DNA of 64,000 nt from an uncultured Verrucomicrobiae bacterium (GCA_963726745.1 CAVSDR010000006.1:704001-768000), one strand, 5' to 3'. Positions 27,301 through 48,506 are shown, numbered from the stretch's first letter. Notes: generated from the sequence alone by a model not told the origin. Numbers and translations are program-made.

Positions 27301-29996
27301 GTCGAGGGTCTGGCCATCCGGGCGGAGCGCGATCACCTCGAGCGGAAGCGGCGCGCCTTCCGTGAGCACGGCGTCGAAGCGCCGCACGCCGAGGTAAAAC
27401 TCCGAGGCGTGCTGGGTAAATTGGCGCGCCTCCGAAACCGTCTGCTGATTCTGGTCGGTCACTTCCACGAACAGCCTGGCCGCGCGCGGCTGCGGCGCTT
27501 TCGCATTCACCGGCAGCGGCGTCTGCACGAGCGCGACGCCGTGGGCATCGATCGCCACTTCACCCTGCGCATTGAATTGCGCGAGCTTGTCGAGCGCGCG
27601 GTTGAAGCGGTAATCGGCGATCGCGTTGCCGAAGGCAAAGTCGCCCAGGCCTTCCGGCGCGAAAGTCTCGTCGCGCGCGACCAGCGACCAGCTCAGCCGG
27701 GCCTGCGAGAGCGGCTGGCCCATGTAGTACTTCGAGGTCACGGGGAGCGCGAGCGCAGTGCTGCCTAACGAGTCGGGCGGCTTCGGGATCACGACCTCGA
27801 AGGCGTTCGGCTTGTATTCCTGCACCTGGAAAGAACAGGAGCCGCCGAGCCGCGTTTCCTTTTCGCCCACGGCCGCGACCTGAAATTTCCCGAGCGTGCC
27901 CGCAGGCACGGTGAACTCGAGCTCGAAGGAGCCGAAGTCCGAGAGCGTGACCGTGCTCGAGTGAATCTGCCGGTCCTTCGCGTCGTTGATCGTGACCGTG
28001 ACCGGCTTCCCCGCGGGGATGCGCTGCTGACCGCTACGGAGGTCCTGCGCGTAGCCCTTGAGGTGCAATTTGTCGCCTGGCTTGTAGACCCCGCGTTCGG
28101 TGAAAAGAAAAATCGTCTGGAGGAAGCGGCCTTCCTCGAAGTCGTTGATCCCTTGGTCGTAAACGCCCAGCCGGTAGAGCGGAATTTCGCCGGAGTAGAC
28201 TGGGATCACGTGCGTGTCGTCGCCGGCGGAAACGGAAAACCAACGAGGCTTTTCCGTCGGCGGCAGGTGCGCCTGGCCCTGCGCGTCGCTCGTGCTTTGC
28301 GCCACCGGAGCGGCCTCGGCATCGAGCAAGGCGACCGTCGCCTTCGCCAGCGCCTGTCCTGTCGCGAGCGAGAAAAGATGGAGCGTGTAGCCGCCGCGAT
28401 CGCGCTTCCAGGCCGCGCCGATGTCGGTCAATTGCATCAGCGTCTGCGTGCCCACGCGCTTGCCGGTGGCGGTCACCGGGTCGACCGATTCCGCGGTGAA
28501 GAGAATCGTCCCGGTGCGGCCCGCGCCGATTTCGTCCCACTTCAATTCCACCACCTGCTGGGTATCGACCGCGCCGCCGGGCGTGAACTCCTGTTGCCAG
28601 ATCAGCTCTCCCGGCAAAGCCTCCGCGTCGACCCGCGAGTAATACTCGTCCGACGCGTCTTCCGGCGGCTTGTTGTAGTCGTCGAAAGCCTTAAGCGCCG
28701 CGGCGATCTGCGGACCGCGGAAGAGCCGCGCAGTCACGCGCACCCGCGGGACATTCACCGAGACCAGGCGGAGCAAACGCGAACCGCCGGCACGCTGGTG
28801 GCCATCGAACTCGGGAAAATAAAGGCGCGCCTCGTAGGGCTGGAAGCTGAACTCGCGGGTGAAAGCGCTGGCTAATTCTGCCGGCTCGGCCGCAGGCATC
28901 CCGGCAGCGACGGTTACGCGATAGGTCGCGCCGAGGGCGAAATCGCCGCTCGCAGTCACGCTGCTGTCGTCGCGCGTCAGCTTGAGCTTCGGCACCGTCG
29001 GCTCGACCTGGACCCAGCGCGCGAGATTCTCGCGCGTGACGTCGTCCGCCAGCGTCTTGGTGAAATCAATCCGCAAGCGCCGGCCGGCGACGCGGTTTCC
29101 TTCCGCGGCCACGGCGCTGATCGCGAATGGCTGCACCTCCCCCACTTCGATGCGTTTCGGCGCGGGCAATTTTGCCGGCCACTCGGCCGCGGGCAGGCCG
29201 GCGTCGATCACTAGATGCCATGCTTTCCCCGGCGGGAGCGGTTTCGCTGGGCGCACCAGGAGAAGATTGCCGCGCGGCGGCGCTGGCTTCTCGGCGTCGG
29301 GCACCAGCGGCTCGCCGTTTTCGTCGAAGTCGTTGGCCGCTTCCTCGGGCTGCAGCTCTGCGGTCCAGGAGCCTAACGAGTTATCGTCGCTCTCCGAGCG
29401 CGCGAAGAGGCGCGTGCTTTTCGCGTCTGCGGCCTGCTCGACCTGCGCCTCGACCCGCTGGTGCGCCGCGTCCTCGAAATGGAAGAAGCCCGCCGCCGCG
29501 CCCGCCTGCACCCCGGCGTTAAACAGGACGGCGAGGCGCGGACGCATCGACGCGTTCGCCGGGTCGAAGCCGCCCAAGTGGGTCACTCCCTTGACCCGGA
29601 GCGGCGGCGTCTCCGCGCTTTCGCGAAACTTCGCGCCCACCTCGCGGCCGGCGAGGTCGCGGAGATTTTTTGCCAGCGAGATCTGGAATTTCGTCCCCAG
29701 CGGAAGGACGCCGGCGGGGGCGAAGGAACCGCTGCGCGTGCTCAGCCAGGTGAAGTCGCCGGCGACCGGCGGTTCGAAAAGCGAGCGGCGACGGGGCGGC
29801 CGATTTTGCCGACCTCCTCCGGGCGCACCATCTCGCTGCCAAAACGGACCTCGAAAGTGCTGCGGGGCTCGAGCGTGCGCGAGGGCAGGAGGAGTTGCGC
29901 CGAGGGCGCCTGGGCCAGCAATCCTTCGCCTAACGAGAGGAGAAGGCCGAGCGAGAGAAGAGAGAAAGAGCGCAAGCGGGAGCGATTAGGCGACAA
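24311..29996 (-). CDS. bacterial alpha-2-macroglobulin (several frameshifts)
   Basis: FTERGVYKPG, QEYKP, AVDEGVLSLT, PDSLTRYR, thioester motif PYGCVEQ; spread over ORFs 29742..29996, 26632..29640, 25878..26624 and the start of 22107..25697. Confidence 0.85.
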
Positions 29997-30099
29997 ACCC
30001 GGAGGCGCGACAAACCTTTTCCGCCAACGCCGCCGCGCCGCTCAGCGCCCTACTTTGCGCTTGCGCGCGCGCCATCCTGCGGGACGATATCCGCCTGCC

Positions 30100-30183
30100 G
30101 CCGGCGTGGCGGAATTGGCAGACGCGCTAGACTCAAAATCTGGTACTCGCAAGAGTGTGTGGGTTCGAGCCCCTCCGCCGGTA
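30100..30183 (+). tRNA. tRNA-Leu (CAA)
   Basis: Acceptor GCCGGCG/CGCCGGT, D-loop GGAATTGGCAGAC, anticodon arm CTAGA-CTCAAAA-TCTGG, long variable arm, TTCGA loop. Confidence 0.95.
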
Positions 30184-30227
30184 ATTCCCCTCCTCCGCCC
30201 ACTGCCGTGGCCGGGCGAAAGCGTCGC

Positions 30228-30803
30228 CTAATTCCCGGGCACGCCGCCCTGCATCCCGCGATCCTGCATATTCTGCACGCCCTCGCCGCTGATGCGGTGG
30301 AGATTCTGCGCTTCGGCGCTGCCTTCCTCGACCCAACGGCCGCCGATGTTGCTCCCGGTGCCGCCGCCGGCGACCCAGATGAAACGCTTGCCGTTCACGA
30401 TCTTCACTTTCGTATTGCTCGAGGCCGCGGCGACAGTCGCAACTTTCCCGGTGGAAACCTGGCCGGTGATGTTAAGGCCCTTGCCTACTTTCACTTTCAT
30501 GGCCACGCCCCCGGCGGCGAATTTCGAACCGGGCACCGCTTCCGCCATCACCTTCTGTTTCCCGGCGGAAACGACCACCGCGAGGTTGCCCTTGGGGGCG
30601 CCATTGCGGGCATTGAACTGCACCACGTATTCGCCTTGCTCGAGCGTCTTGGTGGCAAAGGTGCCGTCCGCGCCGGTGCGGCCTTTGAAGGCAACTTTGC
30701 CAGCAGGATCAGAGACGGTCACATCCAGCGCAGGCATGCCCGCAGCGGACGCCATCGCCGCAAAAGCCGTGGTGGCCAGGAGAGAAAGAAGAAGCTTTTT
30801 CAT
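30228..30803 (-). CDS. secreted hypothetical protein (beta-sandwich-like)
   Basis: Signal peptide MKKLLLSLL...; GC-rich codon usage. Confidence 0.65.
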   Translation of the reverse strand: MKKLLLSLLATTAFAAMASAAGMPALDVTVSDPAGKVAFKGRTGADGTFATKTLEQGEYVVQFNARNGAPKGNLAVVVSAGKQKVMAEAVPGSKFAAGGVAMKVKVGKGLNITGQVSTGKVATVAAASSNTKVKIVNGKRFIWVAGGGTGSNIGGRWVEEGSAEAQNLHRISGEGVQNMQDRGMQGGVPGN

Positions 30804-30856
30804 GGTTCCGCAGGCTAGGCCCGGCCGCCCGCGCCAGCCAAGCCAAAACTTCCGCC

Positions 30857-31204
30857 TCACCGTTGCCCTACCTGGCTCCTGGCCGAACGGCTCGGCCGCT
30901 TCCGCGCCGCCACCCGCTCTGCTTTCTCGCGCTCGTTCTTCAAGATCTCCCGCAGGCCCTGGATGTTTGCGCGGAGATAAACCAGGTCCGCATGGAACAT
31001 GGACACTCCCCGCCGGAGCCGCGCGGTTTCGCGCGCATACTTCGGCGATTCCAGAATGCGCTCCAACGACCGCACATGCCGCAGCAGCGGCTCCAGGCGC
31101 AGCTTCCGCCAATTCGTTTCCGTGGCCGTAGCGGCAAACTCCACCCGCAACGCCTCCAGCGCGTGCCTGTATTTCGGGATGTCCTCCTGGTAAGCCTTAT
31201 CCAT
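30857..31204 (-). CDS. hypothetical helical protein
   Basis: Plausible ORF MDKAYQEDIPKY... Confidence 0.5.
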   Translation of the reverse strand: MDKAYQEDIPKYRHALEALRVEFAATATETNWRKLRLEPLLRHVRSLERILESPKYARETARLRRGVSMFHADLVYLRANIQGLREILKNEREKAERVAARKRPSRSARSQVGQR

Positions 31205-31528
31205 GATTGCCTCGCGCCTCCGCGCCCGGGCGCAGCGCTCCGCCACCGAAAGCCAGTCCGCCAGCCACACCCCCCAGATTCCATCCCGCCCTCCCCAGCG
31301 GCATCGACGCCAGCCGCCGCCACCGCAAAAGATTCTTCATGGCGAGCACCATAACCAAGCCCGCCAGCTAAAGGCCAGACGCTCCTTCCCTGGCAACCAC
31401 GCCTTAACTACCGGGGAGGCCACACCGGGCCACCCCCAGCGCGAGGCCCTGGGACGGAGCTTTTCCCTCTCCCGTCCCCTTCTTCCTGCGCTTTACATTC
31501 CACCACCCGTTAGGCAAAATCCGCGCCC

Positions 31529-32220
31529 ATGAACGACCGCCAGGAAAACAAGCTCGGGATGTTTCGCGCCACCGCTCAAGTCCTCACCGACCACGCCAGC
31601 GCCTTTGCCGGCGTGCCCGCGATGGCGACGCAACATCAGAACCTCCGCGACAGCATCACCCTCATCGATTCCCTCGCCCAGGCGCAGGCCGCCGCCACCA
31701 CCGGCGTCACGGTCGATAAAAAGAATTTCCAGGAGCAGATGACCTCCTACGCCCTGCGCGTGGCCGGCGCGGTCAAGGCCTGCGCGAGCGTGGCCAACAA
31801 CCAAACCCTCGCGAAGAAAACCGAGCTGCACGAGAGCGATTTCTCCCGCGCGCGCGACGACGCTCGCGACGACCTCGCCCAGGGCGTGCACGACGACGCC
31901 CAAGGCGTCCTCGCCTCGTTAGCCGACTACGGCGTCACCGCCGCCACCCTCAGCCGCCTTGCAAACCCGGATCGACGCCTACCGCCTGGCCGTCTCGCAA
32001 GCCCGCCGTCGCCCGCGCCCAGCGCAGCACCCACACCACCCTCTTAGCCGACGAGATCCACCGCGCCGACATGATCGTAAAAGAGCGCCTCGACGGCCTC
32101 ATCCTCCAGTTCCGGGAAACCAACCCGCAATTCGTCGCCAACTACCAGAACGCCCGCAAAATCATCGACACCGGCGCGCAACCGAAAGGCCCGGCAACGC
32201 CCACGCCGCCTTCGCCGTGA
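31529..32220 (+). CDS. hypothetical helical protein (frameshifted near 31960-32010)
   Basis: MNDRQENKLGMF... continues to ...QFRETNPQFVANYQNARKIID; host-like codon usage. Confidence 0.6.
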
Positions 32221-32303
32221 GGTGAGGGAGTAGGTAGGTCTAGGAGACAAAGTCTCAGCAATCTGCCGAGATTCTAGGACTGACCCCTAGCTTTACCTAT
32301 AAA

Positions 32304-32570
32304 CTAGACATCGGAACGGCCAGCCGTTCGCTGCATCGCTTGGTTAGGCCTTGGCGTTGCGTCGCCAGCAAATAAGGCAACGACGGCCCCGTGTCCATCG
32401 CCCAAAGGCCAAGCCGTCTCCAAGCTGCTAATCAGGTGGACTGGCGAATCGCCGTCGACGCGAAAAGTGATGACGCGGTAGTAAAGCCAAGGGCGCCACT
32501 TGGCGATGACCGTATAGCCGACGCGATCTCCTTCGATTGTGCGATCATCATCCACCCAGCGCGGTCTCAT
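32304..32570 (-). CDS. cassette hypothetical protein (runs into the truncated attC)
   Basis: ATG just after the GTTAGGC core. Confidence 0.45.
   Translation of the reverse strand: MRPRWVDDDRTIEGDRVGYTVIAKWRPWLYYRVITFRVDGDSPVHLISSLETAWPLGDGHGAVVALFAGDATPRPNQAMQRTAGRSDV
32310..32349 (-). repeat. truncated attC (R''/L'' half only)
   Basis: Minus strand GCCTAAC-CAAGC-GATGCAGCGAACGGC, then no matching right arm. Confidence 0.7.
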
Positions 32571-32572
32571 AA

Positions 32573-32695
32573 GCCTAACGAGAACAAGATGAGCGACGGC
32601 GGACGAGAGCGCGCATCGCTCGCAGTGGAAGTGTGGAGGTCATCTCAAGTGTGAACGCACAGCGGTCCGCCGTTCGCTCCATCGCATGGTTAGAT
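32573..32695 (-). repeat. attC site (family A)
   Basis: ATCTAAC..ATGGAGCG..CGCTCAT-CTTGTTCTC-GTTAGGC. Confidence 0.9.
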
Positions 32696-32754
32696 GGTTC
32701 GGCGCGCGACTAATCAGGACGACAGGAGAACATGTCGCTGGTGATGGCGCAGAG

Positions 32755-33441
32755 TTAATAGTCGTCTTCGGGGTTCGGATACGTTGCTTCGGGATCCTCG
32801 AGATGCTCGAGCCCTTCGAGGCCAGTGGCGGGCGAGGTCTGCGGCAGCTCCGGCGGTGCCTTGTCCTGTGGCAGCAACTCGATTAATTTCGCACCCCTCC
32901 GAGTGATCTTGTATGACGGCGTGGACCCCGAGTAACCTGTAATCAGCATTCCGAACGAAACCAGCGTTTCGAGATCATCCTGCAGGAAACGGCCATTATC
33001 GCTCGACGAGTAAACATAGTTGTCCACCAACAGTTGGGTCGTGTCACCTGGCGGGATGAATAACATCCCCTGCTTAGAATTGGCTACCAAGCGCAATATC
33101 CCAACCGCGTCATCTGACAAGCCCTGTTGCGGCGCGACAGCGATTGTCAATTCGCTGAAGCCTTCCACGTGGCGCAGGATTTCGACGACCATCGTGTTCA
33201 CCTGGTCAAGCTTCGAAATGATTTCGGCGTGATCTTGCCGCAGCAACTCATCGACTTGCGTCTGCAGGTGATAGGTCTCCGTGACCAGTTCCTTTATCTC
33301 CTCGTGCCGATGGTATTCTAGCCACTCGATAAATTCGCGATGACTCAGATCCTTTCGCGTCCCCATTTCCTGGCGGAACATCCCGATTAGCTGCACCACT
33401 GTGGCAAAGCCAGTGGAGACTGTGAAGGGATCCGCTTTCAA
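32755..33441 (-). CDS. cassette hypothetical protein with C-terminal winged-helix-like part
   Basis: Intact ORF filling the cassette (DPFTVSTGFATVVQL...YKITRRG); start codon uncertain. Confidence 0.7.
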   Translation of the reverse strand: MKADPFTVSTGFATVVQLIGMFRQEMGTRKDLSHREFIEWLEYHRHEEIKELVTETYHLQTQVDELLRQDHAEIISKLDQVNTMVVEILRHVEGFSELTIAVAPQQGLSDDAVGILRLVANSKQGMLFIPPGDTTQLLVDNYVYSSSDNGRFLQDDLETLVSFGMLITGYSGSTPSYKITRRGAKLIELLPQDKAPPELPQTSPATGLEGLEHLEDPEATYPNPEDDY

Positions 33442-33444
33442 ACC

Positions 33445-33568
33445 ATCTAACGAGAACAAGATGAGCGACGGCGGACGAGAGCGCGCGTCGCTTGGAGTGG
33501 AAGTGTGGAAGTCATCTCAAAGTGTGGACGCGGAGCGGTCCGCCGTTCGCTCCATCGGCTGGTTAGAG
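33445..33568 (-). repeat. attC site (family A)
   Basis: Same repeat family as 32573. Confidence 0.9.
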
Positions 33569-33832
33569 CCTTGGCGTCGTCATCGGAGCCTCCCCAACGC
33601 CATCTCGGTCGTTCCCCTTTCCAGAAGCACAGCGCGATCAAGAGCACGCTAAAAAAGATAACCGCCGCGTAAAAGCTGTGTGGATGCGCACGCTCGAACA
33701 ACAGTCCAGCGGAGGAGAGGAGCGCAAATGTAGAAAACCAGATGCGAGCACTCCCTGCCAACGTCTCGGCCATCCCCAGCCGTAGCCATAGCGCTTCGTC
33801 GGGAACCAAGCCTCGTCTTTCGGGAGCGGCAT
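33569..33832 (-). CDS. cassette small membrane protein (frameshifted)
   Basis: MPLPKDEAWFPTKRYGYGWGWP..WQG and ...WKGERPRWRWG in different frames. Confidence 0.55.
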
Positions 33833-33841
33833 ACCTTTTAG

Positions 33842-33968
33842 GTCTAACGAGCACAAGATCAGCTGCCGCGAGCCCTCTGTGCATGCCACGCAGCATACGC
33901 TCCCGACGGCAGACACTCAAGCGTAAATCGCAGGCTTGCTCGCGGTCAGCTGCATCGCCTGGTTAGGC
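33842..33968 (-). repeat. attC site (divergent)
   Basis: GCCTAAC..GATGCAGC..GCTGATC-TTGTGCTC-GTTAGAC. Confidence 0.85.
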
Positions 33969-34361
33969 TGCTCGTCAACCGTATACATAAATCGCGATCA
34001 TCGCGACGCCGATACAGAAGAATATCAGTTCGGGTGCGTGCCGGAATAAGAAGCGATCGATCGTGGCGTCCGGGCCGGATCGATGGTAAAGCACGTTCAC
34101 GGTAGCGCCGAGCTTTAGTGCACGGAGCTCGTCGCAATTTGGGAGACGAAGCATATCGTTTGACCATCCGCGAGCTTGAAACGAGACACGTGGAGCAAAG
34201 GCAACGCCTTCGCCGTTATAATTGCGCGACGAGTTCGATGACCGTGCCGGCTGTCTTCACCCACCGGCGGTAAAGCGCCGCTTCGTGGCAAAAGGTCAAC
34301 GCGGACATGCAGCCGATCGATGACGCCGATGGCAAGATAGGCAGACTGCGCTGTCATGACG

Positions 34362-34485
34362 GCCTAACGAGAACAAGATGAGCGACGGCGGACGAGAGCG
34401 CGCGTCGCTCGGAGTGGAAGGGTGGAAGTCATCTCAAAAGTGGCGCGCAGAGCGGTCCGCCGTTCGCTCCATCGCATGGTTAGAT
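34362..34485 (-). repeat. attC site (family A)
   Basis: Same repeat family. Confidence 0.9.
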
Positions 34486-34832
34486 GGTTGGCGTGCACGG
34501 AGTAGTGGCTCTGTCACGCCGATCACGAAAGCGGCAAAGCTGATAATAAAGGCGCCGAGAGCCAGAAAAAGGAAAACTCCGCATGACCGTGAGCGCAGAT
34601 CGTTTGCAACCTGCGTGTGACGGAAGTGACGAGCCCAAGACCCGCAATACTCGGCGAAGCCAGCAGCACACAGCGACCAAAACCATGCGCAGCGCTGTAA
34701 GCGCAGCAATGCGAAGGAATACGGATGCAACTCGACGGCAGGCTGCCCGGACAAGATGTGCGAGGTAAACTGCGAGAGCCACGAGCAAAAGCGGCGAAGA
34801 TCGCAGCGAACAGAATCTCTTGCGCGCTTTCC

Positions 34833-34955
34833 ATCTAACGAGAACAAGATGAGCGACGGCGGACGAGAGCGCGCGTCGCTCGGAGTGGAACGGTGGAAAT
34901 CATCTTCAATGTGAACGCACAACGGTCCGCCGTTCGCTCCATCGCCTGGTTAGGC
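34833..34955 (-). repeat. attC site (family A)
   Basis: Same repeat family. Confidence 0.9.
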
Positions 34956-35462
34956 GGTTCGCGCCGCATGCGAGTGAAGCTCTGATCTAAGGCGCTGAAA
35001 AAACGTCGGAATAAGCTCTCGATCAGGAGACTTCCATTTCCGTCGTTCTGCTCCCTCAACATATCTGGTCGCGGTCATCGGCACGACATAACGTCCGGCC
35101 CACTTCAGATATTCTTGCAGCCGTATCAGCAAGTCCAGCTCAGCGTCAGATACGGTGGTTACGCGACGCACATATTGGCTGAGGCCGTGACCACCATCCT
35201 CTCGGAGAGTTTGCCAATCAATCCCCTGTGCCACTGCCAATCCCTTGATCACGCCTTCGAAGGCGAGCGCGGTCAGAAGCATGAACGAATGCATAAACGC
35301 GAGTTGCTGCTCCCGAATCCCCGGAAGACTAGGATGCTGCGCTCGAGCTTCCATGAAGCGTGGAAAGATGACTTCGGCGGACATGAAGGCGCCCTCAGCC
35401 TGCTCCGACCACGCAAGCGAATCGCTTTCAACGATGCTGTAGATGGACGCTGGATCAGCCAC
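34950..35462 (-). CDS. cassette protein, HEPN-like helical fold
   Basis: LAFEGVIKG...GHGL...LQEYLKWAGRY pattern; stop codon lies in the attC R'' box. Confidence 0.6.
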   Translation of the reverse strand: MADPASIYSIVESDSLAWSEQAEGAFMSAEVIFPRFMEARAQHPSLPGIREQQLAFMHSFMLLTALAFEGVIKGLAVAQGIDWQTLREDGGHGLSQYVRRVTTVSDAELDLLIRLQEYLKWAGRYVVPMTATRYVEGAERRKWKSPDRELIPTFFQRLRSELHSHAARTA

Positions 35463-35472
35463 GACGCTTACC

Positions 35473-35575
35473 GCCTAACGACCCCAAGCTCAGCGACGGC
35501 GGAGGGACGGCGCGTCGGCTGCGCAAGCAGCCGGCGTGACGGCCCGGAGCAGTTCGCTGCAGCGCATGGTTCGGC
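35473..35575 (-). repeat. attC site (divergent, R'' = GCCGAAC)
   Basis: GCCGAAC..GCTGCAGC..GCTGAGC-TTGGGGTC-GTTAGGC. Confidence 0.85.
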
Positions 35576-35596
35576 AACGTTGGGTTCATTGGTGAC

Positions 35597-35926
35597 TCAC
35601 GGACCTGGGCCATAACGGTAGCCTGACATGGTGAGCACCGCACCGGCGACAACTGCGAGAAGCGCGAACAGAATGAAGCGGTAGAACGGATAGGTGTCTC
35701 TGCGAAAGAGTGCGACGCAGCCGAGAATGAATGTAATAGCTGCAAGCGGGAGCAAGACGACTCGGAAGAACATAGCTGCAATAAAGAAGACGTTCTGGCC
35801 GGATGCCGACGGTGGCAAAAGCACCGTCACGGCGATGACTCCGAATGGAATCGTGAGCATAGGCAACAACACGCAAAATGGCGCACGTCTCCGGCCGGAG
35901 CCTGAGTTAATCGTGGTTTCGGGCAT
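35597..35926 (-). CDS. cassette membrane protein (about 3 TM)
   Basis: Hydrophobic ORF filling the cassette. Confidence 0.6.
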   Translation of the reverse strand: MPETTINSGSGRRRAPFCVLLPMLTIPFGVIAVTVLLPPSASGQNVFFIAAMFFRVVLLPLAAITFILGCVALFRRDTYPFYRFILFALLAVVAGAVLTMSGYRYGPGP

Positions 35927-35940
35927 ACGCGTGGCTAGTC

Positions 35941-36063
35941 GCCGAACGAGAACAAGATCAGCTACCCTCGGAGCACGGCGCGACGGCTGCTCCGGTAGGT
36001 TCTGCGGGCTTGCAGCAGCCGGCGTGACGTGCGGAGAGGGTTAGCTGCATCGCATGGTTAGGC
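35941..36063 (-). repeat. attC site (divergent, R' = GTTCGGC)
   Basis: GCCTAAC..GATGCAGC..GCTGATC-TTGTTCTC-GTTCGGC. Confidence 0.85.
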
Positions 36064-36076
36064 GCTTTCGGGCGAT

Positions 36077-36616
36077 TCACTTCCTCTTGGTAGAAAGGCT
36101 CGCGAGACGGTCAGTCAGGCTAACAATTGCCTGAGCCATAAAGGGAGCGGCATCGCCACTCAGCATGCTGCTTATCTTGGTGGTTGCCTTTCCGGCTGCG
36201 GCGGCGTCTTGCGGAGGAGCACCGGCTGCTGTTGCGCCAGCAGCGATGATATATCCCCAAGGGTTTTTACCTTTTGCAGGTGTAACTGTAGACTGTGTCT
36301 TCCCCGCTTTTGCGGTAAATGAAACTAAGATGTGGTCGGCAGGACGCTTTTTGAATGGGCCCGCTTTATACAGGTGGGTTAGCGTAAATGTGCCAGTAAT
36401 AGTTCTTCCGTTTTTATCCGGATAGGCGTTCATAACCACGTTCTCTAAGCGAAGGTCATGATTCGCCCGCTTGAAGTCAAATTTTCCATCACCGGCCTTC
36501 TTCACCGTCCCGAGAGCGGGTGTTAAAGCAGTTGCCGCAATTGGTGTATCGGCGAGGCAAATGGATGCAAAAGCCAAAATGGCCGAGCAGGTAACAAATG
36601 TAGTGTATTTATTCAT
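36077..36616 (-). CDS. cassette secreted hypothetical protein (AT-richer than host)
   Basis: Signal peptide MNKYTTFV...CLA; intact ORF. Confidence 0.7.
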   Translation of the reverse strand: MNKYTTFVTCSAILAFASICLADTPIAATALTPALGTVKKAGDGKFDFKRANHDLRLENVVMNAYPDKNGRTITGTFTLTHLYKAGPFKKRPADHILVSFTAKAGKTQSTVTPAKGKNPWGYIIAAGATAAGAPPQDAAAAGKATTKISSMLSGDAAPFMAQAIVSLTDRLASLSTKRK

Positions 36617-36673
36617 GATGTTGATGTTTGGATTGGTTATTGGTGTGTTCTATTAAGAGTGGGACGAGGAAGC

Positions 36674-36796
36674 GCCTAACGAGAACAAGATCAGCGACCG
36701 CGGGCGAGGGCGCGCGTCGCAAACACGAGAGGGGTTGGAATCATGGAAAGTGTGAACGCAGAGCGGCCCGCGGTTCGCTGCATCGCCTGGTTAGAT
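36674..36796 (-). repeat. attC site (family B)
   Basis: ATCTAAC..GATGCAGCGAACCGCGGGC..GCCCGCGGTCGCTGATC-TTGTTCTC-GTTAGGC. Confidence 0.9.
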
Positions 36797-37240
36797 GCGT
36801 TGCGTGGCATCGCTGACGATCATCGGTGAGTTCGCGCCTGCAACGAGTTGATCGCCGAAGCCGACTTTGGCGAGCTGCCTCGACTCGACCGGACATGACT
36901 CGATGCCTTCGACGACGACACGCAGTAGCCTGTCGCAATGTCTGTACGAATCGAGCTGCAGACTGCGACCTGCTGCCGAAGCGATCGCCGCTCGTCGGCG
37001 AGCCGGACGATAACATCAGTAGCGAGCGCGTCGATCGCCGCGACCGCGAACGCGAATGTGCGGCAGCATCCATCGTGCGCAGCGCGATCGTGACAGACTG
37101 CGGAGACGCTCGAGCAACGCTCGAGCAGTCGCAGCGAGCCGTCGATCATGCTGTCGAGCTGCAACGCACGCGCCAAATGCGCAAGCGATGCACGTGCAGT
37201 AGCGCATGCGTGAGCGCGATGAGCGATGCGCTCATGCAGC

Positions 37241-37364
37241 ATCTAACGAGAACAAGATGAGCGACGGCGGACGAGGGCGCGCGTCGCTCGGAGTGGAAGG
37301 GTGGAAGTCATCTCAAAAGTGGAGCGCACAGCGGTCCGCCGTTCGCTCCATCGCATGGTTAGAG
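37241..37364 (-). repeat. attC site (family A)
   Basis: Same repeat family. Confidence 0.9.
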
Positions 37365-37765
37365 CCTTGCGTCGTGAGCGATCATGCATCGCGAACTTGC
37401 TGCGATCTCCGACGCAGCGTCGGAACAGCTAGCGTGTCCGCCAGACGTGCAGCACTGCCGCCAGATCGACGCTCGGCTCGAACGAGTCGAAACTCCGCGA
37501 CAATGCGCGAAGCTCGCGATGATCGAGCGAGCTCGATCTCGCGAATCGTGTGAACGCGCCGACGCACCGAGGGTTGCGCGATCGAAGCTCGACGCGGATC
37601 GCACGCGTGCGACTCGCGCGACGTGCCGCGTGATGCGCAGCGCGATGACTGAACGACGATCGTGCCGAGCAGACGCGAACGCAGCGACCGCTCGCACGAC
37701 GATGCGCGCGAACGCACGGCAGTGAACCGCGCGATCGCACGTCGATGACGCGAGCGCGTTCATAG

Positions 37766-37889
37766 GCCTAACGAGAACAAGATGAGCGACGGCGGACGAG
37801 GGCGCGCGTCGCTCGGAGTGGAAGTGTGGAAGTCATCTCAAAAGTGGAGCGCACAGCGGTCCGCCGTTCGCTCCATCGCATGGTTAGAT
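37766..37889 (-). repeat. attC site (family A)
   Basis: Same repeat family. Confidence 0.9.
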
Positions 37890-38245
37890 GCTTGCGTGTG
37901 CACGCGATGCGCATGTCGAGAAGCTCATCGATCGGCGTCTGCATGACGATCCATGCGTCGAAGCATCTGCCGAATGCGCGGCGATGACGTGACGACAGCG
38001 CGATCGCTGGCGAGTCGCTGCGCACGACAGCGTGCGAGACATGCTCGGCGACGTGCGCGAGCATGAAGCGCACGCATGCCGGCATCCGTGAGCGCGATGC
38101 GCAGAGTCGACGCCGACTGCGCACTGCCGGTGCGACCGCACGATGCGAGCACTCGCGCGGCCAGCGAGATCGACTCGATGCCGCAGCGACGCGCAGCACA
38201 TACGTCGCAGCGCTGATCGGCGATGCGATACGAGTGCGCTCATAC

Positions 38246-38368
38246 ATCTAACGAGAACAAGATCAGCGACCGCGGGCGAGGGCGCGCGTCGCAAACACGA
38301 GAGGGGTTGGAATCATGGAAAGTGTGATCGCAGAGCGGCCCGCGGTTCGCTGCATCGCCTGGTTAGAT
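38246..38368 (-). repeat. attC site (family B)
   Basis: Near-identical to 36674. Confidence 0.9.
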
Positions 38369-38731
38369 GCTTAAGCGCGCCATCGAAAGAGTTCTGCGAT
38401 GACGATCCACTTCTTTTCTGAGGAAACCATAGCCGTAGCAATCGTGATACGCTGTGGACCGCAGAACATCAATGCCAAAAGTGTCGGTGTCGGGGTGCGT
38501 GACGAATGTCCCACTGACTTCGCGTCCAGATCGCGGACTGCTCAATCGCGGCGACGTATCGGAGCACAGTTGTGAGAGCCGAGCGACGATAAGCGCTGCG
38601 ATCGTCGCGATACTTCGTCCAGCGCAGCGATGACTGATGTCGCCGCGCGGAATATCGCGATGACGACGCATAGCAGCCGGCGAGAACTGAGCGAAGCAGT
38701 CCGAGCAGCAGGCGAGTCGCGATGCTCAGCG

Positions 38732-38855
38732 ATCTAACGAGAACAAGATGAGCGACGGCGGACGAGGGCGCGCGTCGCTCGGAGTGGAAGTGTGGAAGTC
38801 ATCTCAAAAGTGGAGCGCAGAGCGGTCCGCCGTTCGCTCCATCGCATGGTTAGAT
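38732..38855 (-). repeat. attC site (family A)
   Basis: Same repeat family. Confidence 0.9.
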
Positions 38856-39204
38856 GCTTGGGCGTCGCATCAGCGCGAGCTCATCGGCAGACGCGATCGA
38901 ATCGCCGCGAGCTCGCGACGTCATCGAGCAAGCGGCAGATCGCGAACGCAGACGCACGTCGCAGTCCGAAACTCGCCATGCGTGAAGCTCGCGAGATCGC
39001 CGTCGAGCGATCTGCTGCCGGCGAGATGCTCGAGCACGACGCATCGGCTGAAGCGCACGACTGTCGCGATCGATCGCATGCCGCATGCCGCAGCGACCGC
39101 TCGAGCGGCACGCTATCGATGAGCCGCACAGCGCATGCCGAGCGACGCCAGACGCAGCCGCGAATCGGCGACTGCGATGCGATAGGCTGCGAGCGCGCAT
39201 CAGC

Positions 39205-39328
39205 ATCTAACGAGAACAAGATCAGCGACCGCGGGCGAGGGCGCGCGTCGCAAACACGGGTGGGGTTGGAAGTCATGGAAAGTGTGAACGCAGAGCGGCC
39301 CGCGGTTCGCTGCATCGCCTGGTTAGAT
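39205..39328 (-). repeat. attC site (family B)
   Basis: Same repeat family. Confidence 0.9.
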
Positions 39329-39724
39329 GCTTGCGTGCGATCGCATTCGAGCACGATCCGCGATGCATCGCAGTCACCGAACTGCTGTGCCAACGGCGAT
39401 CCAGAATCGTGAATGCGCTCCGCGAACATGCGTCAGAGCCGCAACAGATGCTTCGCTGTCGAGACGACGCGCATCGCGACATCGACCGACTCGTCAGCGT
39501 GAGGCAGAGTGCCATCGAGACAGCCATCGTGGATCCGAGACGTGCGATCCGAGGCGTCGCACGAATCGCGAGCGTCGCGGTAGCTCAGCCGAACGAGCTG
39601 CCGCTGACGCCCGACTCGCAGATGTACCGCGATCGCGGCGCGCTCGACATGCGCTGCCACGCGCAGCGCATGCTGACGACGGACGAGCGTGATCGCAGCG
39701 ATGACGCATGAGCGTGCGCACAGC

Positions 39725-39843
39725 ATCTAACGAGACCCAAGATCAGCGACCGCCGAGGGCGCGTATGGCTGCTGGTTGAAGGTGGAAGTCACGGAAAGTA
39801 GGAACGCGGAGCGGTGGCGGTTCGCTGCATCGCATGGTTAGGT
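39725..39843 (-). repeat. attC site (B-related)
   Basis: ACCTAAC..GATGCAGCGAACCGC..GCGGTCGCTGATC-TTGGGTCTC-GTTAGAT. Confidence 0.85.
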
Positions 39844-40078
39844 GCGAGCGTGGCCTCGCCACCAGCGTGGCACGTGACCGCCCGCAGTGAACGCATCCTG
39901 TCGGCAAAAGAGCCAGCAACCTGAAGCCGAACGTCGACTGACGCTCCCCTGCTCTGCTCCCGTGCGCGTCGCCATCGTCCTGCGCTTTCTGCAAAATGCT
40001 GTTCGCTCGGCGAGCCACTGCACCGCTCGACGTCCGCCCGGAGAAATTAGCCAGCAACTTCATCGCGACGGTCTCAGC

Positions 40079-40202
40079 ACCTAACGAGAACAAGATCAGC
40101 GACCGCGGGCGAGGGCGCGCGTCGCAAGCACGTGGAGGGGTGGAAGTCATGGAAAGTGTGAACGCAGAGCGGCCCGCGGTTCGCTGCATCGCCTGGTTAG
40201 GC
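40079..40202 (-). repeat. attC site (family B)
   Basis: Same repeat family; R' = GTTAGGT. Confidence 0.9.
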
Positions 40203-40770
40203 CTATTCGCGTGACTTAGCAGAAGCGCGAGTGATAATGTGACGTTGCAGCCCTCGCGACTCGCGTGCCGCACCAGCCTGAGAATAGTTGTAATCGCCCG
40301 CGTCGTAGCCTCGATTCGGATGCTCGGCATAGCTCTGTCAAGCCTGGACAAACAGCCTCTCGCTCGATCCTGGTTGACCAGATGTCACTACGCGGTGGCC
40401 ATCAGTAGCGCTGTGGCGCAGCCACGTCTCATCGGCCACGCGCCTAATCTTCCGACAAAAGCGTCCACCAGAAGCGCCATCCGGTAGCGTCTGAAAGACG
40501 GTAGCGCAGAAAGATCTTCTCGGGCGCTACTGGATCGACAAGAAAGTGAGAGGCCAAGACGGGTTGAGAGAAGAAGTCGGCGATTCCGCGGAGTAGCGCG
40601 CACGTTGCAGCGGCGCACGCTGTCGGCTAGTGCGCTGCCGGGAATCGGAAGCTAGCGAGGATGACGAATCCAACGCTTGCTGCCTCGCAGCGTCTTCGAC
40701 CGTGCCGCCGAGCTGCCGAGATCAGAATGACGGAAAGGAAAAATAACGCGAGCATGATGTTCGCATCCAG

Positions 40771-40893
40771 GCCTAACGAGACACAAGATCAGCGACCGCT
40801 GGCGAGGGCGCGCGTGGCTGCAGGTGGAATGTGGAAGTCATCGAAAGCTAGAACGCGGAGCGGCCAGCGGTTCGCTGCATCGCCTGGTTAGGC
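40771..40893 (-). repeat. attC site (B-related)
   Basis: GCCTAAC..GATGCAGCGAACCGCTGGC..GCCAGCGGTCGCTGATC..GTTAGGC. Confidence 0.88.
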
Positions 40894-41266
40894 GTTGGTG
40901 TGGGATCGAAGGAGTCTCTCGTCGTCCCCGGGTAATACTTCAGCAAGAGGTCGTGAACGCGAAAGAATGAACCGAAAGCAGCGAGTAGTGATACAGCAAG
41001 TTTCCATGAGACGGTGGCGATGCAGAAACCTGCAGCAGCGCCAAGCAGAAGCCCAATATGAAAACCGTGCTCGGCGGAGCGGGACTCTGAAGCAATGTCG
41101 CCCAGGCCGCGAATCATGCGAGGGATCGCGCAGAGGATGCCGACGAGAACGAGGCCGTAGACAACACTTAGGGCGATGGCGACCTTCCGATTGGCTTTTG
41201 TCTGGCGGCAGATGCGCTCGACGAACTCATCGTCGGTGAGTGTGCGGCGGCGAAAACTGGAGCATG
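40894..41266 (-). CDS. first cassette: small membrane protein (frameshifted)
   Basis: ATG shortly after the attI-like core; hydrophobic stretch IGLLLGAAAGFCIATVSWKLAVSLL...LLKYY. Confidence 0.45.
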
Positions 41267-41280
41267 ACGTGTCGGCAGAC

Positions 41281-41298
41281 GCCTAACGAGAATTAGAC
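41281..41298 (-). other. attI-like recombination site
   Basis: Minus strand GTCTAAT-TCTC-GTTAGGC: core site with an inverted L-like box, no attC hairpin, at the head of the array. Confidence 0.65.
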
Positions 41299-41360
41299 GA
41301 AGGTTCGTCTTTAAAGGCGAACATTTTTTCGCCTATCAAACTTTTGGGGACTTCGAGTGA

Positions 41361-41714
41361 TCACTTTGCCGGGCGCTTGAAGATGGCGGCGCCTTCGCCG
41401 AGGGAGCAGAGTTCCCAGCCGGCGCGGCCTTGTTCGTTGAGGTAGGCTTCGAGGCGCGGGGCGTAGGCGTCGTAGAGGATCTTTTGCAGGTCGGCGGCGA
41501 TGGAGTAGAGGTCTTCGTGTTCCGCCGCCGGCGTGGGGGTGGGTGGCGGTTTTGGCTCGGGTGTTTTCTCGGGCGGCTCGCTCCTCCAGGCCTGGATGAG
41601 AGGGGCGAGGGAGACGACTTTGTATTCCCATTTCGTGGCCTGCGCGTGCGCCGGGCGCGGCGGCAAAAGCAGGGCGAGGGAGATGGCCAGGAGGAGGTTC
41701 GTTTTCCGGATCAT
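41361..41714 (-). CDS. small secreted DUF4177-like protein
   Basis: Signal peptide; KWEYKVV...LNEQGRAGWEL. Confidence 0.65.
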   Translation of the reverse strand: MIRKTNLLLAISLALLLPPRPAHAQATKWEYKVVSLAPLIQAWRSEPPEKTPEPKPPPTPTPAAEHEDLYSIAADLQKILYDAYAPRLEAYLNEQGRAGWELCSLGEGAAIFKRPAK

Positions 41715-41917
41715 CGGCGCGGAGGAAGGGGGTTTCTCGGCTTGGCTCCGGAGCTGGCGCCGTGGCGATTTCAGCCAAGGGGCGAGCGCCGGATGGACAC
41801 CGTTATAGGCACTCGGTCGGTCGGCGGCAACCGGGAAGGTGGATCCCTTCCCGCAAGGTTCCAGCAAAGCCGCCACCAAGAATCGTAAGTGGCTCGGGTT
41901 CAGGCGCGATGACGCCC

Positions 41918-42130
41918 AATCAGCGGCCGTTTACATCCGATCAGGGGCGATTTACGGCGGCTCAGGGACGGCTGACATCCGAGCAGGGCGCGATTACTTT
42001 CGCTCGGGGGCGGGTGACGTGGAATCAGGGGCGATGCGCAGGCGCGCAGCGGCGGGGCGCGGAGAATCGGGGGCGGTTGACGCTGGCTCTGGGGCGATTT
42101 GCGGGCGAGCGGCGGCGGATGACGGGGATC
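41918..42130 (+). repeat. degenerate 21-nt tandem repeat (about 10 units)
   Basis: Units such as GATCAGGGGCGATTTACGGCG / GCTCAGGGACGGCTGACATCC / AATCGGGGGCGGTTGACGCTG; translates as QGRFTAA-QGRLTSE-QGAITFA. Confidence 0.6.
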
Positions 42131-42250
42131 AAGGCCGGGTGGCGGCGGAGCGGCGACGAAGGACGCGCGCTCGGCGGCGGGGCGCGGGCGCTCGGCGGCC
42201 GGTGACGGTGGAGCAGCGGCGGATCGCGGCGGCGGGCGGGCGGCCGGCGG

Positions 42251-43799
42251 TCAGTGCGCGGTTTCGGCTTTTTCTGCGCCCAGGCCGGTGTTCGCGCGGA
42301 CGGTGAGCTCGGCGAATTTCGCTTCGGCCGAAGGCTCGCGGGTGAGGATGGTCCCGAGCCAGGCGCCGAGGAAACCGAGCGGGATGCTGACGATGCCGGG
42401 GTTCTTGAGCGGGAAGAGCGGGTGCGTCTGGAAATCGGGGCTGAGGAGGATGAGGACGATGCTGGAGACGAGGCCCACGGCGAGACCGGCGACGGCGCCG
42501 GTGGTGTTGAAGCGCTTCCAGAAGATCGAGAAAATGATCACCGGCAAGTTGGCGCTCGCGGCCACGGCAAAGGCGAGGCCGACGAGGAAGGCGACGTTCA
42601 CTTTCGGCCCGAGGAGGATGGCGATGACGATCGGCGAGCGCGCCGACGACGAAGGCGGTGATGCGGGCGACGCGCACTTCCGCGCCGGGGCGGTGTTCCT
42701 TCCCGTGATGGAGCACGTTGGTAAAGAAGTCGTGCGCAAAGCTGGTGCTGGCGCTGATGGTGAGACCGGCCACGACCGCGAGGATGGTGGCAAAAGCGAC
42801 CGCGCTGATGAAGGCGAAGAAGACTTCGCCGCCGAGCATCCGCGCGAGCTCAGGCGCGGCCATGTTCGTGCCGCCATGGAGCTTCATGTGGTCCGGCCCG
42901 AGGAGGGTGGCCGCGCCGAAGCCGAAGAAGGTGGTCATGATGTAGAACAAGCCGATCAGGACCATCGCCCAGACGACACTGGTGCGGGCGGTCTTGGCAT
43001 CGGGCACGGTGTAGAAGCGGATGAGGATATGCGGCAAGCCGGCGGTGCCGAAGACGAGGGCCAGGCCTAACGAGATCTGGTCGAGCGGATTCTTGAAGAG
43101 CAGGCCGGGGGTGAGGAAATTGCGCGTCACCGGGAGGCCATCGGCGCCGGTGCAGGTGACGGCGCTCACCGCCTGGAAGAAGCTCGTTAGGCTAAAGTTG
43201 AACCGGCTCATCACGAGCACGCTCAGGAAAAGGCTGCCGCTCATGAGCAGGACCGCCTTGACGATTTGCACCCAGGTGGTCGCGAGCATCCCGCCGAAAA
43301 CCACGTAGACGACCATGAGCACGCCCACGCCGATGACCGCGACCTCGTAGCTCACCCCGGGGATAAGCTGCCTAACGAGAGTGCCGGCGCCGACCATCTG
43401 CGCGATCATGTAAAAGATCGAGACCGTGAGCGTGGAGAGCGCGGCCATGGCGCGCACCGGCCGCTCTTTCAGCCGATAGGCGAGCACGTCGGCCATGGTG
43501 TATTTGCCGGCGTTGCGCAGCGGCTCGGCCACGATGATGAGCACCGTGAGGTAGGCCACGAGGAAGCCGACGGAATACATGAAGCCGTCGTAGCCGTTGA
43601 GCGCGATCATTCCGGCGATGCCGAGAAAGCTGGCCGCGCTCATGTAATCGCCCGCGATCGCGAGGCCGTTTTGCCAGCCGGTAATCCGGCGGCCGGCGGC
43701 GAAGTAAGCGCTCGTCCCCTGGCTGCGGCGGGCGCTGAAGTAAGTGATGACCAGCGTGGCCGCGACGAAGGCCAGGAACATGAGCAGGGCGACGTTCAT
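42251..43799 (-). CDS. actP: cation/acetate symporter ActP (frameshift near 42640)
   Basis: [39 protein letters not shown]. Confidence 0.9.
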
Positions 43800-43815
43800 A
43801 GAAGTGGTCGGCTAA

Positions 43816-44160
43816 TTACCGGCGGAAGCGCGCGAGCACGTCGGCGGCCTTGCGATCCCAGCCAGTGGCGACCATCACGTAGATCGCCGCCAGCACCCAG
43901 GCCATGAGGAATTGCGAAAGCGCAAAGGCGTAGGCCAGGTTCATCTCGCCCCAGACTTTTCGCTGCATGAAAGCGGTGTGGTAGCCGACGAGATAGGGCA
44001 GCGCGAAGTAGTAAACGAGGAAGAAGACCGTCGCCGGGACGATGAAACGCGCCTTCGCTTTAATCAGCGCCTTGAACTCCGGCGAGTCCGCGATTTTTTG
44101 CCAGTCGGCCTGGGCGCGCTGGTCCTGCGCGGAGCGTTCGTCGGCAGGTTCCATGGGCAT
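43816..44160 (-). CDS. DUF485 (YjcH-like) membrane protein
   Basis: SPEF..L motif plus two TM helices; typical actP neighbour. Confidence 0.8.
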   Translation of the reverse strand: MPMEPADERSAQDQRAQADWQKIADSPEFKALIKAKARFIVPATVFFLVYYFALPYLVGYHTAFMQRKVWGEMNLAYAFALSQFLMAWVLAAIYVMVATGWDRKAADVLARFRR

Positions 44161-44203
44161 CGCGCCTGCATCTAAAGCGGGCCGCTGCGCACGGAAGCAA
44201 TCT

Positions 44204-44545
44204 CTATTTCCCGCAGACGTGCGTGGAGCGGTAGAGCCGTGCGTCCTTCGGATCGGCCGGGTTGACGCAGACCTTGTAGGTCCACTCCGGATGATACCAG
44301 GTCACCTTCTCGAGCGTTTGCGTGAAAGTCTGGCTGCCAGCCATGTAGGCATACGTGAGCGTGTGGCCTTCCACCCGTTTGTCGTCTTCCTCCCAATGGA
44401 CGGGCAAGGCCGCAAAGCCGAGCGCTTCGGTCTCCTGCGAGAGGCGCTTGCTCACGCGCGCCTCGTCCCACAGGACGAAGGCAATGATGGCCGCAGTCAC
44501 TCCACCGACGATGAGGATGGTCCAAATCCAGGTCTTCTTTTCCAT
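44204..44545 (-). CDS. hypothetical membrane-anchored protein (DUF3592-like)
   Basis: N-terminal TM; YAY...V.VNPADP. Confidence 0.55.
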   Translation of the reverse strand: MEKKTWIWTILIVGGVTAAIIAFVLWDEARVSKRLSQETEALGFAALPVHWEEDDKRVEGHTLTYAYMAGSQTFTQTLEKVTWYHPEWTYKVCVNPADPKDARLYRSTHVCGK

Positions 44546-44634
44546 AAACGCGGGCCAATAAAGCGAGCCGCAGCGCACCGTGCGACTGCGAATTTTAGGC
44601 AGCAACTTCACCCGCCCCGTGTATCTAGCGGGGG

Positions 44635-46170: not shown

Positions 46171-46215
46171 GTTGCCCGGCGGACCTCTCCCCTTTCGCTG
46201 GGAAAATTTCGGCCG

Positions 46216-47366
46216 CTACGTGATCACGTAGTTGAGGCTGATCCATTGCCGCCCAGGGTTCCGGCTTGGGCCGCCGCAAGGCATGATCTCATTCGCGCGC
46301 ACTTGCAGGACGTCGACTGTTTCCGCGTCGTCTTCGGTGTCATCGCCGATCGAGCGCGTGGGCGGCACCGGCGGGACGGGCGCGACCGGCGGCACGGGCG
46401 CGATCGCGGGCAGGTCCTTTTGCTCGAGCTTTTCGTAACGCCCGCGCACTTCCGGCGGGAGCTTGGCGCGGTCTTCCTCGGTGTCGACCGGTCCGCTGAA
46501 GAGCAGACGGCCCTGCGGGTCTTTGGCCGTGAGCACTTTTTTGTCGCCCACCATCTCGAGGTTCAATTCTCCCTGCGCGTCGCTGTAGGCGATCTTCGCC
46601 TTGCCGAGATCGATCCGCGTGGTCTTGAGCGCGCCGTTATCGTTCGAAGTAATGATGCGCACTCCGCGGGCCGCGGCCCGGGCGTCGCGGGCGATCTGGC
46701 GGGCTTCGGTGCGGGCCCGGCGCGCTTCTTCCCGCGCCTGGCGCACGGTCTGGTCGATCATCCCGAAATTCATCTCCTTCATCTGGTCGCCTAACGACTC
46801 CAATTCCTGCTCCATCCCGGTCTCGAACTGGTAGCCGAAGTGGTTCCCGGGCCCGCGAAAGTTCGGGCCGCGCCGCGACCGCACCTCGCGTTTGCCGAGC
46901 TTCGCGCTCAATTTCGTCTCCGCGCCTTTGCGCAGGACGGTGAGCGTGACCGTGGCGCCTTCGCTTTGGCTACGGACTAACTTCGAGAGCTGGTTGGGCT
47001 CGGTCAGGACCTGGTCGTTGAACATCTTCAGGATGTCGTTTTGCTGGAGGCCGGCAGCGGCCGCGGGCCCATCCGGGACGACATACTCGACCACCAGGCC
47101 GAAACCTTTCGCGAGCCCGAGCTGATCCGCGACCACGCCGGGGACTTCCGAGGTTTCCACCCCGAGAAAAGTAACCGGCACTTTGGCGCGGCGATCGTCG
47201 CTCTCGTCGTCGTCCTTGTCTTTGTCTTTATCCTTGGTGCGCTCGTTAGGCACGGGCGCGACTTGCGGCGCGGCGCGGGCGCGGGTGGCGGCGGCGGGTT
47301 TTGGGCGGAGGCGGCCAGCGGCAGAAGGCTGGCGGCGGTGAGGAGAGCGAGGCAGGTGGCTTTCAT
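46216..47366 (-). CDS. secreted PDZ-domain protein (frameshift near 47255)
   Basis: Signal peptide MKATCLALL; FLGV...GLVVEYVVPDGPAAAAGLQQNDIL. Confidence 0.75.
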
Positions 47367-47391
47367 GATCGTGGGGTTTTCGGGTTGAGAT

Positions 47392-48364: not shown

Positions 48365-48390
48365 CACTTCCTCATCGTCTCTGTTCTGGG

Positions 48391-48415: not shown

Positions 48416-48506
48416 TGCAGTGCGCGCGGCCTCGCGGCTCGCGGGGACGAAAGGGGAAAACATGATCGATGGGGAGAGGGTCACGGATTGAATGCTTTAA
48501 TAAGGA

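Follow-up and report, generated by a model that had tools for sequence, protein, structure and literature searches.

Uptake sequences have been established in two pathogen-containing bacterial families (PMC7811141). The DNA uptake sequence (DUS) of Neisseria and the uptake signal sequence (USS) of Pasteurellaceae double the tripeptides that they encode (PMC2817400), and the spacing of DUS has been linked to the size of conversion fragments (PMC2397512). Among integron systems, Vibrio cholerae recruits cassettes from transforming DNA (PMC12614218), and the secondary chromosomal site attG requires only GWT, with CRGM as a hotspot motif (10.1101/2022.09.11.507474). The window analyzed here is a stretch of 64,000 nucleotides from an uncultured Verrucomicrobiae bacterium (GCA_963726745.1 CAVSDR010000006.1:704001-768000; G000:C6:704001-768000 in our handles), whose genome, G000, is 3.4 Mb long, 94.7% complete and about 64% GC. 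The window contains an integron cassette array in which some recombination ends coincide with a word that is iterated throughout the host genome. Our preferred reading, which we hold tentatively and somewhat short of calling it probable, is that this word is a "self" tag read by a host protein other than the integron integrase, probably a component of DNA uptake, and that its target was first set on an older attC end from which it is now uncoupled. Relatives are referred to by handles (G...), and f1 is the family of the host. Gene positions and coding sequence (CDS) counts for G000 are our own gene calls. Genomes flagged as unpublished (G001, G008, G030, G035, G208, G533, and G568) are rows in several tallies, and no argument rests on these alone.

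The 10-mer CTCGTTAGGC is the most frequent 10-mer of G000, with 820 copies against approximately 4 expected under an order-2 model. The 9-mer TCGTTAGGC (hereafter word A) is the family-wide word and occurs 1,312 times against 16 expected, an excess of approximately 82-fold. In the window, CTCGTTAGGC was found 25 times against 0.10 expected, and 19 of these copies lie outside att sites. In agreement with the known DUS and USS (PMC2397512, PMC2817400), the word is a non-palindromic 9–10-mer with more than 1,000 copies on both strands, largely in coding DNA. Specifically, 634 of the 820 CTCGTTAGGC copies are fully inside predicted CDS, mostly read as TCG-TTA-GGC, and the two strands carry 631 and 681 copies of TCGTTAGGC. 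The absence of a strand or replichore bias (522 and 493 copies on the G-rich and C-rich strands, p=0.38) sets the word apart from Chi and KOPS, which have polarity along the replichores. The encoded tripeptides are over-represented (SLG, 762 vs 464 expected, 1.6-fold; PNE, 252 vs 100, 2.5-fold), and the word is sparser in foreign-looking genes, with 1.6 copies per 10 kb in genes of lower GC at third codon positions and 3.4–4.0 in typical genes (this measure and a gap list serving as the proxy). Both features, and the restriction to one family, are also found in DUS and USS. GTTAG and the first T of the word are strict, and the last two positions tolerate single changes. Word pairs less than 100 bp apart are present at 0.24 of the expectation in G000, and the avoidance ends by approximately 250–300 bp. 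The word differs from DUS and USS in having no ComP above cut-off and no inverted terminator pairs, in that two unrelated words can share one genome, and in being equal to an attC end. By genomic signature, it works like a DUS or USS and is a candidate member of that class. HIP1 (PMC5861425) is also a hyper-abundant short word in coding DNA with a density that differs between relatives, and is palindromic, unlike the word described here.

Comparison with orthologue-like genes of nine relatives indicated how the copies arose. Of 130 TCGTTAGGC copies, 113 are inside alignments, and 106 of these are ungapped (background, 96%). At the copy positions, the relatives have ordinary codons or similar residues, with S/A/E/D-L-G where the word-bearing gene has S-L-G. 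Because the alignments at the copies are mostly ungapped and colinear, the copies are products of point substitution in colinear genes and not insertion scars. This observation bears on a proposal of the first-pass annotation of the window, that the chromosome is seeded with integrase half-sites, or secondary sites of the attG type. GTT is present in every copy, GWT being in the matching register, the attG right motif CRGM follows the word in 243 of 1,312 copies (18.5%, a weak excess over the 9.9% background), and 16 of the 25 other f1 genomes contain IntI-like matches. We nevertheless consider seeding very improbable. The alignments show no breakpoints at copies, and the dispersed copies lack an L box. 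Neither TCGTTAGAT nor TCGTTCGGC, both of which serve as ends of att sites, is enriched in the genome; the commonest attC end, CTCGTTAGAT/TCGTTAGAT, has 7 genome copies against 5.6 expected, essentially the att sites themselves. Moreover, attG sites are chance sites and not enriched words, and their requirement of only GWT (10.1101/2022.09.11.507474) makes seeding unnecessary, and harmful inside genes.

The starts of cassette arrays and the distribution of integrases argue in the same direction. Scattered mini-arrays begin at attI modules without intI remnants at 16 of 30 f1 loci, 3/3 loci in G000, 4/6 in the word-free genome G189, and 3/6 in family f5. The other 14 f1 loci were left uncalled, and two of them have a bare word copy 1.1–1.2 kb upstream that is not tied to a cassette. 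No array starting at a bare word copy, and hence no cassette insertion at a dispersed copy of the kind that the annotation suggested looking for, was shown among the 30 f1 loci and the three G000 arrays. No intact gene corresponds to the annotation's "genome's IntI" in the 94.7% complete G000, where only XerC and XerD were found and the array loci gave no intI match. A decayed intI fragment of approximately 50 aa, with an insertion and a frameshift, is present beside a half attC (C2, ~58690-58900). IntI-like matches, of which some long ones may not be true integron integrases, occur without the word in 76 of 195 non-f1 genomes; the opposite combination, a word-rich genome without detected intI, is represented by G000, G024, G169, and G083, a negative limited by incomplete assemblies. 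A stand-alone IntI N-terminal domain was considered as the reader and rejected, the only PF13495 match being a Xer gene.

The word is confined to the host family. The 10-mer is enriched in 36/36 f1 relatives (51–1,749 copies). The 9-mer exceeds the copy number of the reversed word, which served as the control for enrichment, in 126 of 131 f1 genomes and in 0 of 195 other genomes of the order; this control overstates the baseline, so weak f1 cases may be relics. The 195 genomes contain 0–44 copies of the 9-mer, under their controls, with many of the copies at att sites. Among the 131 f1 genomes, the density of dispersed copies ranges from 2 to 1,350 per Mb, a span of approximately 500-fold. Five non-Verrucomicrobia bins with f1-type attC, in which binning errors are possible, contain 2–14 copies of the 10-mer and show no enrichment. 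Records with the same attC type are mostly titled Chthoniobacterales or Verrucomicrobia among the 80 of 165 stretches listed. The C in front of the 9-mer is not fixed, being present in 820 of 1,312 copies in G000 and in fractions of 0.14–0.71 in 13 sampled relatives with 6–165 copies each, which does not confirm the suggestion that the whole CTC seen at att sites belongs to the scattered word. The idea that relatives of low density use another dialect of word A was rejected, as 9/9 sampled genomes have the same 9-mer.

Other words of the same kind are present in the family. In genus g24, a second word, AAGATCGACA, has 3,589–4,653 copies in 3/3 genomes (G070, G169, and G489; loci L345-L348), or approximately one per 650–800 bases; both strands carry it, and some copies are within genes. 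G000 and G104 have 22 copies. Word A in g24 (883–1,803 copies) is below AAGATCGACA, and the att ends are still CTCGTTAG. Because the specificity of the word changes without the att sites following, the reader is likely to be something other than IntI. The second word of G000 (word B), detected as TTAGCCRRCRRNNT with 466 copies against at most 44 in 60 relatives, has no att counterpart. Its full form is (A/T)TTAGCCRRCRRNYT, and TTAGCCRRC occurs more than 1,100 times in G000. Apart from a weak presence in G011 and G015, word B is practically restricted to G000; it has TTAG in common with word A and shows little self-exclusion. A bipartite site composed of words A and B was rejected, since the two keep no fixed spacing, other than where they overlap in their common TTAG, and do not exclude each other. 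As side observations, 105 predicted genes of G000 have a TAA stop codon inside a word copy and 88 have a TAG, and about a third of its rare TTA codons are within word A or B.

The array in the window is on the minus strand and consists of 16 complete attC sites (103–127 nt, 32573 to 40893) and a truncated terminal one. The sites are spaced by 397–1,202 bp, the cassette-sized distances of a cluster of attC sites lacking integron integrases (CALIN). R''/R' and L''/L' boxes are present in 16/16 attC; bottom-strand folding of three sites gave the core stem in 3/3 and paired R''/R' in 1/3 of the minimum-energy structures. The site at 41281 ends in TTCTC-GTTAGGC, as the annotation had stated for its attI-like site, and it aligns with the intI-adjacent sites of relatives G002 and G189. 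This homology, together with the L box, the spacer and the G/TT crossover, identifies it as attI. The array is a CALIN of the ordinary kind, with an orphan attI at its head. It resembles the described CALIN (PMC9668308) in having 16 attC, canonical G/TT junctions and no intact intI in the genome, and differs in the full attI module at its head; there are three such modules in G000 and several per relative, with no nearby intI remnants.

The post-crossover ends of the 16 attC are GTTAGAT (7), GTTAGGC (6), GTTAGGT (1), GTTAGAC (1), and GTTCGGC (1), and CTC precedes the crossover in 15/16. The earlier description, that nearly all attC end in TCTC-GTTAG(GC/AT), holds for the CTC, and the full pattern is present in 12/16. 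Similarly, its identification of the att end with the word in host genes is exact for CTCGTTAGGC in 5/16 attC and in attI, and does not extend to the commonest end, GTTAGAT (7/16), which is not enriched. All seven array copies of TCGTTAGGC are at att junctions and are the only tagged spots of the array. The chance that nine bases would match exactly and in register across the crossover is approximately 1e-4 per word, a post hoc figure, and the strict core of the word, TCGTTAG, is the invariant part of f1 junctions, while its tolerant last two bases are their variable part.

Outside f1, the same attC ends are found without the word. In the word-free families f6 and f8, attC typically end in GGGTCGTTAG, and TCGTTAGGC ends 21/68 attC in f6, 17/20 in f8, and 26/33 in f5, the f5 and f8 regions having been picked on word matches and thus being biased towards the word. 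In another phylum (that of G061, record titled Acidobacteria), none of 201 genomes has more than 69 copies of TCGTTAGGC. Three of its members, G580, G608, and G709, have at least 50 copies each, in two to four same-strand clusters, and 6/7 inspected copies in these three genomes are attC ends. A phylum-level search with an attC pattern matched in 5/201 genomes and was uninformative. An end of this kind, common as it is among attC of word-free lineages in two phyla, cannot have arisen by fitting to the word of f1. The range of the attC end greatly exceeds that of the word, so that a causal link, if there is one, would run from attC to the word. One of the outcomes that the annotation had named as refuting, this attC end with no enrichment, is observed here, and the refuting outcomes that it listed mostly speak against a present coupling.

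These data bear on another proposal of the annotation, that the spacers of att sites became fitted to a host tag, giving every cassette junction an uptake or recombination signal. The most suggestive feature is the CTC. CTC-ended attC are found in 26/26 f1 genomes and in 9/195 others (G040, G054, and G189 have 13–19 each), so that they are near-diagnostic of the word-rich family. Within f1, CTC is present in 30/31 and 55/59 attC whatever the integrase clade, and in the window all seven 9-mers of the array are at junctions. CTC also stays in the word-poor f1 genomes G464 and G066 and in the word-free G189, G040, and G054. At attI, it follows the integrase. In a tree of 52 IntI-like proteins, on which f1 is not a single clade (unrooted), CTC before the attI crossover tracks a single integrase group (support 83/92; branching within the group is open). 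This CTC is present in 15/15 rows of that group with a visible attI, including word-free G189, and absent from three f1 hosts with other integrases and from 12 non-f1 hosts with a visible attI.

The final bases of attC do not follow the word. For 1,781 CTC-ended attC in 131 f1 genomes, whose kinship makes the correlations non-independent, word density was unrelated to attC number (Spearman rho 0.08, n=131) and to the GGC share of attC (rho 0.03, n=76), so that the predicted co-variation of the word with attC end or number was not found. GGC ends account for 579/1,781 attC (33%), rising from 28% to 38% across density bins (p=0.12, not significant), and are more frequent in word-free f6 (52/68). 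The g24 att ends also ignore the new top word. Of the fitting proposal, only the near-fixed CTC could survive, which amounts to at most one base, and it is improbable that att sites were fitted to a host tag. As a separate observation, the f1 R box has moved from GTTAGGC (52/68 in f6) to mostly GTTAGAT, GTTAGAC, or GTTAGGT (67%), away from the word; avoidance of the host reader may be one reading of this shift.

The absence of word/att co-variation within f1 and the presence of the attC end in many word-free genomes would also be expected if a host process wrote a word that matched a common attC end by chance, with the CTC kept through a shared family cassette pool. The family has at least three words, of which two have no att match, the base at –1 varies, and many other motif types could have caused similar surprise. 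The exact match straddling the crossover and the correspondence of strict and tolerant positions stand against chance. We consider coincidence possible though unlikely, and the overlap between att ends and the word is too exact to dismiss.

A remaining proposal was that one mutational process drives both the word and the att ends; a HIP1-like route, with a methylase-linked repair bias, would be of this type. HIP1 has a methyltransferase link, for which no counterpart was found here. TCGTTAG resembles the asymmetric sites of the MmeI/PglX type with a penultimate A, and target domains that change fast would account for second words specific to a lineage. An MmeI-type methyltransferase is absent from G000, G024, and G477 (2/5 genomes positive), so that no enzyme of the MmeI/PglX type is shared, and a motif scan of G000 yielded only an RsmD-like and two HsdM-like genes, the labels being our reading of the motifs. 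In addition, the att ends are independent of word density. The arm of XerD was examined as a source of the word and rejected, as a strict dif search was empty and the candidate from a relaxed search is unlike the word. A dif-like 28-mer at G000 C5:120899, 15 bp or less from where the GC skew of the contig peaks, has no word-like arm. A common mutational origin is quite improbable and found no support in these data.

The genomic pattern fits biased DNA uptake best, and for the preferred reading, a host tag read during uptake, the following course of events may be envisaged. In the f1 ancestor, a very rare 9-mer would have stood mainly at cassette junctions, where a reader that was still weak could first meet an abundant target from kin. 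Near-matches in genes would then have been converted to the word by molecular drive, since kin-transferred fragments with a copy would be favoured, and the gain may saturate at one copy per few hundred bases. After this initial setting of the target, the attC end and the word would have evolved apart. G000 has genes related to uptake, namely comEC, dprA, and 14 pilin-like genes. The chromosomal integron of V. cholerae (PMC12614218) offers a parallel as a route for taken-up DNA to feed attI; the kin filter there is the attC preference of the integrase, and the available part of that report describes no uptake tag.

Several observations weigh against this reading. comEC is also present in word-free genomes (5/5), matches to ComP_DUS (PF16732) are below cut-off in 3/5 genomes, the sole ComEA-like match is weak and looks broken, and no reader protein was found in searches for ComP, ComEA, the IntI N-terminal domain and methyltransferases. 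Self-exclusion replicates only partly (20 vs approximately 33 expected pairs less than 300 bp apart in three relatives) and is not seen in G477. Inverted pairs of the Neisseria DUS terminator type are lacking: pairs on opposite strands and no more than 50 bp apart numbered 4 and 0, against 12.4 expected each. In the orthologue comparison, 17 of the 130 copies are at or beyond alignment edges and were left uncalled. The att link comes from one lineage (n=1), with a chance figure that is post hoc; two of the family words match no att site; and the order of events is read from distribution, not from a rooted test. The full word is absent from two thirds of f1 junctions, and their most frequent form (GAT) is not enriched in the genome, which is awkward for any cassette-directed function.

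A more specific version holds that the uptake receptor of the f1 ancestor was aimed at the junction TCGTTAGGC, which integrons of several families and phyla have in common, to fish cassettes from environmental DNA, that biased uptake then painted the chromosome, and that duplicated receptors later wrote the new words. We regard this version as rather unlikely; if true, it would explain how an uptake sequence originated and would add a third bacterial family to those known to have one. How the target word of an uptake system is first chosen is an open question in the field, and this lineage provides a DUS-like word in abundant soil bacteria. Derivation of the word from the attC end would give cassette acquisition a common origin with kin-biased gene exchange. 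Cassette arrays would otherwise be without the tag and are tagged at about a third of junctions; if uptake is real, this third would be fully tagged, so foreign cassette genes would arrive pre-tagged. With its 500-fold density range and its lineage-specific second words, the lineage is a natural series in which phylogenetic profiling could reveal the reader and molecular drive could be tested. The negative results also matter, in that the approximately 1,300 copies should not be taken for integrase landing sites. The coupling and direction tests and the second words are new; judged from listings, with subscription journals outside coverage, the literature yielded neither a description of this word nor one of an uptake word identical with an attC end.

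All features of the array are on the minus strand unless stated. The orphan attI (41281..41338) comprises an upstream inverted repeat, the L box GTCTAAT, the spacer TTCTC, and the crossover G/TTAGGC, with no adjoining intI. Similar orphan modules of approximately 60 bp occur several per genome, in hosts rich in the word and in hosts free of it, and the several kb around each contain no intI remnant; those at 41281-41338 in the window, at ~149606 on C4 and ~632370 on C3 of G000, and at L297-L333 each head a mini-array. Numbered from attI, the sites ending in CTC-GTTAGGC, the exact word, are attC 1 (40771..40893, 123 nt), whose bottom strand folds with R''/R' paired, attC 7 (37766..37889), attC 9 (36674..36796), attC 13 (34362..34485), and attC 16 (32573..32695). 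CTC-GTTAGAT ends attC 3 (39725..39843, 119 nt), attC 4 (39205..39328), attC 5 (38732..38855), attC 6 (38246..38368), attC 8 (37241..37364), attC 12 (34833..34955), and attC 15 (33445..33568). Single cases are attC 2 (40079..40202), ending in CTC-GTTAGGT, attC 10 (35941..36063), in CTC-GTTCGGC, and attC 14 (33842..33968, 127 nt), in CTC-GTTAGAC. attC 11 (35473..35575, 103 nt) is of an order-wide type and ends in GGGGTC-GTTAGGC, which matches the 9-mer without the preceding C. The truncated terminal attC (32308..32349) has R'' and L'' only. A copy of word B (TTAGCCAGCAACT), the second, genome-specific word, is within a cassette body on the plus strand (40047..40059). Cassette open reading frames (ORFs) of 179 aa (36077..36616) and approximately 228 aa (32755..33441) have no Pfam match, as is the case for all four cassette ORFs searched.

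The 19 dispersed CTCGTTAGGC copies of the window, given here irrespective of strand, are within 10456..61204 and start at 10456, 21478, 22090, 23044, 24730, 26251, 27763, 29371, 29928, 43065, 43183, 43370, 47242, 53380, 55531, 58133, 58382, 60604, and 61195.

Six cassette bodies at 36800..39723 have almost no base runs, with a same-neighbour fraction of 0.06–0.14 against 0.25 genome-wide. All seven run-poor 300-nt windows of G000 fall in this region, and the cassettes of relatives are normal. These bodies are also nearly without sensible ORFs and sit between near-identical attC repeats. They are probably an artefact of assembly consensus, so the count and order of attC there are less secure. 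The start of the short ORF-less cassette at 39852-40076 is found a second time in G000, at ~151067 on C4, where it follows the last attC of the mini-array. Finally, the three integron relic loci of G000 each adjoin a gene whose product is helical, rich in alanine and similar in appearance from locus to locus (window 31529-32220; C4:151291; C2:57328), and the gene in the window is frameshifted and has no Pfam match.

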